In this document: positions 8,263 through 10,239 of the stretch, in pieces | Layout of the letters: every line of letters begins with the position of its first letter | How positions within the stretch are numbered: position 1 is the stretch's first letter | NCBI GenBank assembly: GCA_047967505.1 | Contig: CM106538.1 | Source of the DNA: Dipteris shenzhenensis | Taxonomy: Eukaryota | Direction: 5' to 3' (one strand) | DNA: 64,000 bases | Position numbers and translations under genes: made by a program | Notes under the pieces: model-generated | Databases searched by the model: none | What the model was told of the DNA's origin: nothing | What the model saw: the letters and a program-made list of their open reading frames with translations, nothing else

Positions 8263-10239
8263 ATGGCGTCCAAGCTCTGCAGGTCTTCCATCGCCACTAT
8301 CCTGCTCGTCCTGCTCTTCTTCTTCTTCTTCCCTCACCTTCCATCAGTAAGAGCTCGCTCCTTCGATCATACGCGCACCTCGCAAGATGCCAACCCTCAT
8401 GACATGGTCACTGGCTCCCCCAACGCACACCCTCAGCAGCCTCAGCACCAGCTCGTTTCTTCCATTTTGAGCTCCCCTGTCGTCGCCCACTCCCACCCTC
8501 CTTCCTCGGACACGAATCCTCATTCCATAGCCCCAAATCTGACCGTCAACGCTGCAAACAACTCCAATCTGTCCACGGTCGCAACAGCGACTGTGGTCGA
8601 TGCAGATGATGAGCAATCCAGCACGAATTTCAGTCGACGCCAGCCGCAACTAGAGCAGCTCCCTTTAGGAGCTTATCCTCATCATCATCCTGCCGCCGGT
8701 GACGATCAGATTTTAGCAACCAGTTCAGCCCTCATTCCTGGGCGCGACTCTGAGAGCCTTGCAAGCTCCTCTGGGCCTAATCCTGGTGGCAACTCCGCAA
8801 GCCTGGCCAGTGTTCTTGATGCAGATATTGCTGGCGACAACTCTCAAATTCTCTCAGCAACTTCAGGCCCTAATCCAAGCGGGAACTCTCAAATCCTGGC
8901 AGCAGCTTCGAGTCCTAATCCCGGTGGCAACGCTCAAAATCTTGCGGTAACTTCAGGGCCTAATCCTGGTGGCAACTCTCAGAGGCTTGCGACAAGTTCA
9001 GGGCCGAATCCCGGCGGCAACTCTCAAATTCTGTCAGCAACTTCAAGTCCTAATCCCGGCGGCAACGCTCAAAATCTTGTAGTAACTTCAGCACCTAATC
9101 CCGGTGGCAACGCTCAAAATCTTGCAGCAGTATCTTCAGGGCCTGATCGCCACTCTCAGAGCCTTGCAGCAACTTCAGGGCCTAATCCTGGCGGCAACTC
9201 TCAGAGCCTTGCAGCAACTTCAGGGCCTAATCCCAGTGGCAACTCTCATATTCTGTCGGCAACTTCGAGTCCTAATCCCGGTGGCAACGCTCAAAATCTT
9301 GCAGCAGTAACTTCAGGGCCTAATCCCGGTGGCAACGCTCAAAATCTTGCAGCAGTAACTTCAGGGCCTAATCCTGGTGGCAACCTTGCAGCAACTTCAG
9401 GGCCTAATCCTGGCGGCAACTCTCAGAGCCTTGCAGCAACTTCAGGGCCTAATCCTGGCGGCAACTCTCAAATTCTTACAACAAGTTCAGGTCCGAATCC
9501 TGGAGGTAACTCCAACGTCCTCATGGTGACCGAGCCTGCTCGTGGTGCAAAATCTGGTGCCAGCGGCAACACAGATAAGTCCGTAGCCGTAGATGCTTCG
9601 GTTTCTGGGCCGAATCCAGGGGGCAACGCCGATGTTCTCTCGACTTCTGCAGGTCCAAATCCAGGAGGCAACTCAGAGATACTCCGAAGTGCCTTAGATT
9701 GTGGTGAAGACTGTAAAAATCTGAGAAGGAGCACAGATGCTACTACTCAAAGCGTTGTGTCCTCCGGACCCAACCCGAGTGGGAATTCGGGAATTCTAGC
9801 TTCCTCTGGGCCGAATCCTGTGGGCAATGCTCGCACCTTGTCTACAGATGCAGGATGGACGAAGAAAACTGTTGCTTCAGTCTCAGGGCCAAATGATTTA
9901 GGGGGGAATGCGGGCATTAAGGCTGCAAAGTCTGCGATTTTCAGCAAGCTACCGCCTGTTTCGGTTTCACCATCCGGTCCAAGCCATGGTCACAATTCTG
10001 AGACGACGGCAGAGAACCTGTTCACGGTACGTAGAGAATCCACTGAAAGGAAATTGGAGGAATCGGCAGAGGGAGGCGAAGTTGTCATCGGTTGTGAGCA
10101 AGACGGGCTAATAATGTCCGTCTCCCAGAGCGAATTTTCGTCGATTCCTTTCCACCATAGCGAAGAGCGTGGAAGCGCGGGCATTTTGCTTGGTGACACA
10201 ATGCGCATGGGCATCGCAACCAGCCAACTGCAAGCTTGA
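8263..10239 (+). CDS. Secreted multi-peptide precursor: signal peptide, 19 CLE/TDIF-like S(G/S/A)PNPxGN repeats and a C-terminal IDA-like motif
   Basis: Intact intronless 658-aa ORF. The N-terminus MASKLCR-SSIATILLVLLFFFFF-PHLPSVRA|RS looks like a signal peptide. Repeated 12-mers such as LAATSGPNPGGN compare with TDIF HEVPSGPNPISN. FSKLPPVSVSPSGPSHGHN compares with IDA FGYLPKGVPIPPSAPSKRHN. Confidence 0.85.
   Translation: MASKLCRSSIATILLVLLFFFFFPHLPSVRARSFDHTRTSQDANPHDMVTGSPNAHPQQPQHQLVSSILSSPVVAHSHPPSSDTNPHSIAPNLTVNAANNSNLSTVATATVVDADDEQSSTNFSRRQPQLEQLPLGAYPHHHPAAGDDQILATSSALIPGRDSESLASSSGPNPGGNSASLASVLDADIAGDNSQILSATSGPNPSGNSQILAAASSPNPGGNAQNLAVTSGPNPGGNSQRLATSSGPNPGGNSQILSATSSPNPGGNAQNLVVTSAPNPGGNAQNLAAVSSGPDRHSQSLAATSGPNPGGNSQSLAATSGPNPSGNSHILSATSSPNPGGNAQNLAAVTSGPNPGGNAQNLAAVTSGPNPGGNLAATSGPNPGGNSQSLAATSGPNPGGNSQILTTSSGPNPGGNSNVLMVTEPARGAKSGASGNTDKSVAVDASVSGPNPGGNADVLSTSAGPNPGGNSEILRSALDCGEDCKNLRRSTDATTQSVVSSGPNPSGNSGILASSGPNPVGNARTLSTDAGWTKKTVASVSGPNDLGGNAGIKAAKSAIFSKLPPVSVSPSGPSHGHNSETTAENLFTVRRESTERKLEESAEGGEVVIGCEQDGLIMSVSQSEFSSIPFHHSEERGSAGILLGDTMRMGIATSQLQA
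8842..9510 (+). repeat. Coding tandem repeat, about 45-bp (15-codon) unit
   Basis: Consensus tctcagagccttgcagcaacttcagggcctaatcctggcggcaac, about 15 units. All length variants preserve the frame. Confidence 0.95.

Follow-up and report, generated by a model that had tools for sequence, protein, structure and literature searches.

An IDA-type motif behind an array of CLE-like units in a predicted prepropeptide of the fern Dipteris shenzhenensis

Introduction

IDA/IDL prepropeptides (PF27884, named IDL5; Arabidopsis IDA, AtIDA; the PVPP-type PVPPSGPSPCHN of PMC7552357) begin with a signal-peptide-like stretch; the lead-in F..LP precedes a dodecamer that contains Pro-Ser-Gly/Ala-Pro-Ser and ends in His-Asn, and a short NS... 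continuation follows. The contact residues of AtIDA are Ser62, Hyp64, Ser65, His68 and Asn69 (PMC4848090), and a common ancestor of the CLE and IDA/IDL families has already been proposed in PMC7552357, where the PVPP-type is named. Here we analyzed 64,000 nucleotides of the fern Dipteris shenzhenensis (contig CM106538.1 of assembly GCA_047967505.1; this whole stretch is called the window), in which an open reading frame (ORF) on the plus strand encodes P0001, a predicted prepropeptide that shares these IDA/IDL features and holds an array of 21 CLE-like SGPNPGGN units in front of the IDA-type block. Judged from the sequence, this block is very probably an IDA module by descent, homologous to the seed-plant IDA/IDL motifs.

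Several described precursors resemble P0001 in part. The supplement of PMC8462819 lists fern IDAs of Salvinia and Azolla, and the Salvinia cucullata protein Sacu_v1.1_s0067.g016251 (214 amino acids) shows, when compared by eye, the same family layout as the window, with PQIQMVT, a single MLDAPSSGSNNGGNS (unit MLDAP-SSGSNNGGNS) and a C-terminal ...TVPTSGPSPKHN; against the 21 units of P0001 it has a single, degenerate one, and it ends at HN without a tail. The passages of PMC8462819 consulted here do not mention this unit. The Azolla IDA in the same supplement is a short precursor with LFSMLPRTPVPPSGPSKTHN, and the Marchantia IDA (VFQKLPR...PPQGPSPIHN) and the Selaginella IDA (VFQKLPK...APSGPSKDHN) given there are close to FSKLP...PSGPSHGHN of the window. 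Selaginella moellendorffii CLE15 (BAH56546.1, also in the PMC8462819 supplement) contains PPTGPNPGGNS and PPTGPSPGGN units in one precursor and, by eye, six IDA-like SKPR..PSPPAGPSPVHN repeats plus a canonical CLE motif, HLVPAGPNPLHN. It is filed as a CLE, and its arrangement is the reverse of that in the window, since the IDA-like module is repeated and the GPNPGGN unit is rare. The combination of unit, IDA-like repeats and CLE motif in CLE15 means that mixed precursors are older than ferns. Multi-domain CLE precursors (Globodera, 1-5 CLE domains; Meloidogyne MAP, 1-9; PMC8618561) are likewise secreted and carry a tandem 12-residue SGP-type motif, but they repeat one motif class, whereas the window joins a repeated class to a single IDA module.

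Results

A single IDA-type block follows the last unit

The frame at 8263-10239 (+) runs from ATG to stop over 658 codons plus the stop codon, and the low-complexity protein is presumably disordered. Its parts, and the flank behind it, are the following; X1 and X2 are two related sources and P0005 is one of the relatives described below.

8263..10239, plus strand: prepropeptide P0001, complete ORF, 658 amino acids, with frame-keeping indels in X1/X2
8263..8355, plus strand: probable signal peptide, residues 1-31, with a hydrophobic run I10-F23 and ...SVRA followed by RS, read from the translation
8395..8415, plus strand: conserved propeptide motif PHDMVTG, family pattern P-H/Q-I-x-M-V-T
8770..9909, plus strand: unit array, 21 units of ~15 residues each, core SGPNPGGN
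9940..9996, plus strand: extended IDA-type motif FSKLPPVSVSPSGPSHGHN, residues 560-578, in gap-free alignment with IFSELPRAPVPPSGPSPSHN of P0005
9961..9996, plus strand: predicted dodecamer SVSPSGPSHGHN, counterpart of AtIDA residues 58-69, register from published alignments
9997..10236, plus strand: C-terminal tail, 80 residues, partly conserved (NS.TT..LF, VIGCEQ, MG.A)
10240..10869, plus strand: flank behind the stop, probable 3' untranslated region, lying on the contigs that also span the ORF

An earlier note on this DNA had picked out an IDA-like motif after the last repeat, and bases 9940-9996 (+) do encode FSKLPPVSVSPSGPSHGHN, residues 560-578 of P0001, behind the last, degenerate unit SGPNDLGGN (residues 541-549); the roughly 80 further residues that the note had seen behind the motif are exactly 80 before the stop. 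A six-frame regular-expression scan of all 64,000 bases found the core P[ST][AG]PS..HN at 9970-9996 and nowhere else. The register of the dodecamer was taken from the alignment of AtIDAp and GmIDA1ap in PMC5972575 and its definition from PMC4848090. In this register the central Pro of SVSPSGPSHGHN is flanked by Ser (P-S-[A/G]-P-S) and the C-terminus is His-Asn, as in IDA/IDL, and the contact positions Ser62, central Pro/Hyp64, Ser65, His68 and Asn69 are kept, together with Pro61. The lead-in F-S-K-L-P is present, with Pro565 in place of the Arg seen in X1, X2 and most relatives.

The block is kept at the same place in fern relatives

An exhaustive phmmer search with P0001 returned 21 proteins at E ≤ 1e-3, six of which bear units by regular expression (P0003, P0004, P0005, P0006, P0018 and P0020). 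The other 15 have no units, and the seven of them that were inspected are unrelated repeat proteins. Narrower homologue searches with residues 520-658 (proteins of 361-1152 amino acids) and with bases 9703-10236 (97-312 amino acids) had given no match at E ≤ 1 before the exhaustive search succeeded. The four named unit-bearing relatives are all ferns, from Adiantum nelumboides, Psilotum nudum (two clusters) and Pteridium aquilinum.

In the seven family members, one regular expression counts 19 (window), 11, 6, 5, 5, 2 and 1 units, and an IDA-type block stands at the same place in five of the seven. These five make up the rows of alignment A1:

window: IFSKLPPVSVSPSGPSHGHN
P0018: IFGMLPRATPVPPSGPSKDHN
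P0005: IFSELPRAPVPPSGPSPSHN
P0003: IFSELPRASHVPLSGPSTTHS
P0004: FSILPQGSTTPSGPSPGTN

Invariant in A1 are F, L-P and S-G-P-S, plus a T behind the motif. SGPS is thus kept in five of the seven family members and the terminal HN in three (window, P0005 and P0018), the block ending in HS in P0003 and in TN in P0004. Two members, one of them from Pteridium, have near-canonical blocks, and the Pteridium-type counterpart peptide is PVPPSGPSPSHN. The idea, already in the earlier note, that orthologues might retain the motif while the repeat number varies is borne out by P0005 and P0018; the motif is lost in P0006 and P0020.

The likeness extends beyond the block. A hydrophobic run followed by P..A.S.R.R is found at the N-termini of P0003, P0004, P0005 and P0018 as well, and the N-terminus of P0001 is a probable signal peptide, predicted from a direct reading of the sequence. 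The propeptide motif, located by eye and in part aligned, reads PHIGMVT in P0003, PHIQMVT in P0005, PHIHMVT in P0018 and PNIEMVV in P0006, and PQIQMVT in the published Salvinia IDA is the same motif. The architecture, a signal-peptide-like N-terminus, a PH.MVT motif, units, an IDA-type block and a tail, is common to the fern relatives.

The block scores above shuffled sequence, and the family profile retrieves IDA/IDL proteins

We built a hidden Markov model (HMM) from 65 seed-plant PF27884 proteins, which had been retrieved with a profile holding the window as one of five rows. In P0001 it matches best at precisely residues 556-579, with 10.9 bits, a score reached by none of 2000 shuffles, which preserve composition only, of the whole protein (maximum 8.4), of residues 529-658 (maximum 6.6) or of residues 545-600 (maximum 10.3). 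An HMM of four fern relatives, with the window left out, matched residues 537-612 at 48.9 bits, again above all of 2000 shuffles (maximum 12.0). By both models the motif scores better than chance. A scan of P0001 returned 0 Pfam families at E ≤ 10, and a scan of 12 proteins including PF27884-labelled members returned nothing relevant, the library scanned in both cases being one that did not contain the PF27884 model.

The A1 profile found 69 proteins of 37-130 amino acids at E ≤ 10 among 643 candidates. Of these, 65 carry the label PF27884, and all 65 read LP[KR]..PVPPSGPS-like. Retrieval went through shared 5-residue words, mostly from the P0005 and P0018 rows, and so bears more on the family than on the row of the window. 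The TN ending of P0004 recurs in 10 of the 69. P0001 differs from these matches in length (658 amino acids against 37-130, the only length range searched), in its array (a unit-like 8-mer occurs in 0 of the 69), in its tail (80 residues, where the matches have a median of 20 and at most 62) and in its dodecamer, which is degenerate relative to IDA/IDL. Among the same short seed-plant matches, six (P0037, P0057, P0059, P0064, P0080 and P0083) hold two IDA-like cores per precursor, so the IDA module has been duplicated internally in seed plants too. A search of the ESM Atlas gave leads for P0018 that were all under 0.9, from which only the name IDL5 for PF27884 was taken, and no usable match for the unit array.

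The unit core is constrained

The array starts at residue 170. Nineteen of its 21 units fit a loose regular expression, 11 contain exactly GPNPGGN, and two, at residues 292 and 541, are degenerate; Tandem Repeats Finder reports a period of 45 with 15.2 copies at 8833-9512. The 49 units across the seven proteins share S-G-P-N-P-G-G-N-S-x-I/x-L, and the core is unchanged from Psilotum to Adiantum. Among the 19 units (two of the 21 being left out by the regular expression, and the pairs not being independent), the ratio of non-synonymous to synonymous divergence (pN/pS) is 0.108 in the 8 core codons versus 0.717 in the 8 flanking codons, at equal synonymous divergence. The unit core is under purifying selection.

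Set against the CLE 12-mer, the units have S5, G6, P7, N8, P9 and N12 and lack R/H1, P4 and H11; a G-N ending is also seen in MpCLE1, HKNPAGPNPIGN (PMC8462819). Aligned by hhalign, units and IDA block share one register (SGPNPGGN over SGPSPcHN, last Asn over Asn), with a score of 12.4 that was reached by 10 of 300 column permutations, which lends weak support to a common origin of units and block.

All 8 residues of the unit core, SGPNPGGN, recur unchanged in the core of 16D10, a secretory peptide of root-knot nematodes (Mi16D10p in Table 1 of PMC5972575; table of PMC8618561), and PSGPNPGGN in P0018 (residues 135-143) and P0006 (residues 122-130 and 164-172) matches 16D10 in 9 of 9. The receptor of 16D10 is entered as unknown in PMC8618561. 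The two differ in setting, 16D10 being a single peptide directly behind the signal peptide, from an animal, and the fern units lying in a tandem array in a plant. CLEs often contain SGPNP, so that the match to 16D10 goes beyond this string by about three residues and could be chance or convergence. One could go further and suppose that the SGPNPGGN units are a distinct, ancient class of signaling peptide in vascular plants, found in ferns and, in the form TGPNPGGNS, in Selaginella CLE15. They would be released as a polyprotein from the precursor that also yields IDA, a single gene delivering both ligand classes, and 16D10 would imitate this class in place of CLE; we regard this as speculative and rather unlikely.

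Comparison with two related sources: an intact gene with a worn block

Contigs of X1 and X2 are 95-99% alike to the window and lie only between 8209/8223 and 10852/10869; their ends were not used as evidence of transcript ends or expression. None of the four indels inside the ORF (6, 1+2 and 6 bases) breaks the frame, and a 1-base insertion sits behind the stop, at 10371. The ORF differs from X1/X2 by 10 synonymous and 17 non-synonymous changes (pN/pS ~0.59). Within the block, Lys562 is Arg in X1 (K562R) and Pro565 is Arg in both (P565R), and for the dodecamer SVSPSGPSHGHN, which contigs of both X1 and X2 span, no difference is listed in either. The gene is intact, and the IDA block is worn in the window's copy.

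An intron starting at GTACGT 10027 was considered and rejected; the genomic frame is colinear with P0005 and P0004, which come from transcript assemblies, and this site is therefore not a used splice donor. The flank at 10240-10869 is probably the 3' untranslated region of the ORF, and record 8 of X1 runs unbroken across 9441-10852, from inside the ORF into this flank. Inside the contig-covered flank, behind the stop, lies a direct repeat of ~115 bases (10474-10589 and 10635-10755, 86-91% alike). Just upstream of the contig-covered region there is a run of ~18 A at 8139-8160, and reads seem to be cut at 8131-8167. The window has a G+C content of 0.35-0.50 and few long ORFs. Besides P0001, six long ORFs were compared with Pfam and none gave a match; the other long frames at 62066-63232 (+, 388 amino acids), 3269-3952 (-, 227 amino acids) and 16143-16613 (-, 156 amino acids) have none at E ≤ 0.01.

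Discussion

A proposed route from precursor to ligand

We propose that the block serves as the ligand module, of IDA type, in a fern IDA/IDL prepropeptide whose variable region carries SGPNPGGN units in tandem, 21 of them in P0001. The prepropeptide would enter the secretory pathway, and proteases would cut before the block (after LP-R in the relatives) and directly behind Asn578. With its central Pro573 hydroxylated, the resulting peptide of ~12-13 residues, SVSPSGPSHGHN, would lie along a leucine-rich-repeat receptor kinase of the HAESA/HSL clade. The two arginines of this receptor, together with a SERK co-receptor, would hold the free C-terminal His-Asn of the peptide, as in Arabidopsis IDA. 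The units, whose last Asn aligns with the Asn of the IDA and CLE dodecamers, would probably be excised as a second set of peptides, and one precursor may release two ligand classes, as the earlier note had suggested. As a whole, that is with descent, with this mechanism and with an active ligand still made by this very copy, we find the proposal moderately probable.

Several observations weigh against it. The basic residue before the block is lost in the window (Pro565 instead); subtilases cut AtIDA directly after the Lys that corresponds to this position. The block of the window scores weakly with the seed-plant PF27884 HMM, 10.9 bits against 45.3 for P0005 and 42.6 for P0018 (P0004, 15.1; P0003, 14.6; P0020, 7.5; P0006, 1.4), and only 2 of the 69 profile matches reach E ≤ 1e-3, the weak E-values following from the shortness of the motif. 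In the dodecamer, Ser replaces Pro at positions 1 and 3 (AtIDA 58 and 60), and His-Gly occupies positions 66-67, which are Lys-Arg in AtIDA; exchanging both of these for Ala weakens binding 10-fold (PMC4848090). The precursor, at 658 amino acids with 80 residues behind the motif, is not a small IDA precursor with the motif near its C-terminus, and the tail would have to be removed, because C-terminally extended IDA does not bind HAESA (PMC4848090). Finally, the block has decayed in P0006 and P0020 with the units retained. In P0006 (229 amino acids, 6 units) it is reduced to LPQTSPLGHGS, and in P0020/P0025 (382/393 amino acids), which still hold SGPNPGGN units, it reads LPSAPVPPSNPYTEINS. Some copies can therefore do without the block, and the persistence of the units hints that they have a function of their own.

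Alternatives to an active IDA-type ligand

Such observations would fit a block that is IDA by descent but now an inactive relic, in a gene kept for its SGPNPGGN units, either as products or as an uncut glycoprotein motif. The low score of the window's block and the missing basic residue point this way, as do the two relatives that lost the core and kept the units, the strong constraint on the unit core and the pN/pS of 0.59 for the ORF against close relatives. However, SGPS and the terminal HN are intact in the window, the N-terminal half of the dodecamer is variable among ferns generally, and the 12 residues carry no listed difference in X1/X2, an observation of little power at ~1.4% divergence. 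We consider this relic possible, though on balance doubtful, and prefer the reading of the block as a ligand module still in use.

That the block is instead the last, diverged unit of the array, and of CLE type rather than IDA type, is very improbable. Its P-S-G-P and H-N do stand in the CLE register, and the hhalign register with the units described above leaves room for a shared origin. But when set by eye against the CLE pattern, the block has Ser at position 1 and Ser-His at positions 8-9, and only P4, S5, G6, P7, H11 and N12 fit; Ser, not Asn/Asp-Pro, follows SGP, and position 1 lacks Arg/His. The block also has its own conserved IF..LP upstream and NS.TT downstream, both absent from the units, it is present once per protein whatever the unit number, and the PVPPSGPS of the relatives is the PVPP-type that PMC7552357 groups with IDA/IDL.

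Chance resemblance in Ser/Pro/Gly-rich sequence, for which one could cite the low complexity of the protein, the shortness of the motif and the empty Pfam result (from a library without the PF27884 model), is highly implausible given that none of 2000 shuffles reached the score in each of five tests and that the block is conserved in position in the relatives. A PIP/PIPL-type peptide, ligand of RLK7-type receptors, would share SGPS and a Gly-His behind it, but the window reads SGPS-HGHN and the relatives SGPSPSHN and SGPSKDHN, with no GxGH end. Such an end, and in most cases no HN, is what PIP and CEP peptides have (PMC8462819), and this assignment is almost certainly wrong. Of the earlier note's placing of the motif among the SGP-type families, the IDA-type part stands, through the fern relatives and the PF27884 retrieval, and the PIP-type part does not.

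Precedents and prior descriptions

The joining of an IDA block and an array of CLE-like units in one predicted precursor is real and family-wide, and a search of the main texts of papers turned up no description of it. In that literature, SGPNPGGN or GPNPGGN occurred only in papers on the nematode peptide and GPSPVHN in none. By titles and abstracts, IDA in ferns led only to PMC8462819 and its preprint; 16D10 combined with fern gave no fern-related title among the matches listed, and Selaginella with multiple CLE domains gave only a paper on CEP. The supplement text of PMC8462819, for the part seen here, has no SGPNPGGN, PSGPSHGHN or GPSHGHN. The earlier note knew of no hybrid precursor of this kind, which is too strong in view of the Salvinia IDA with its one degenerate unit and of Selaginella CLE15; both are in public data, where they stand uncommented.

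Significance for fern peptide signaling

Among the central signals that pass between the cells of land plants are the IDA and CLE peptides, whose common origin has so far been argued from motif likeness only (PMC7552357). With its IDA module and as many as 21 constrained CLE-like units in a single frame, this fern family is a test case for the origin of ligands by internal duplication, and the match of the unit core to 16D10 makes the units a testable candidate for a plant signal copied by a nematode effector. Screens of short precursors, such as that of PMC8462819, which was limited to proteins under 200 amino acids, miss members of this kind. The fern family may also serve to test whether one precursor feeds two receptor classes.

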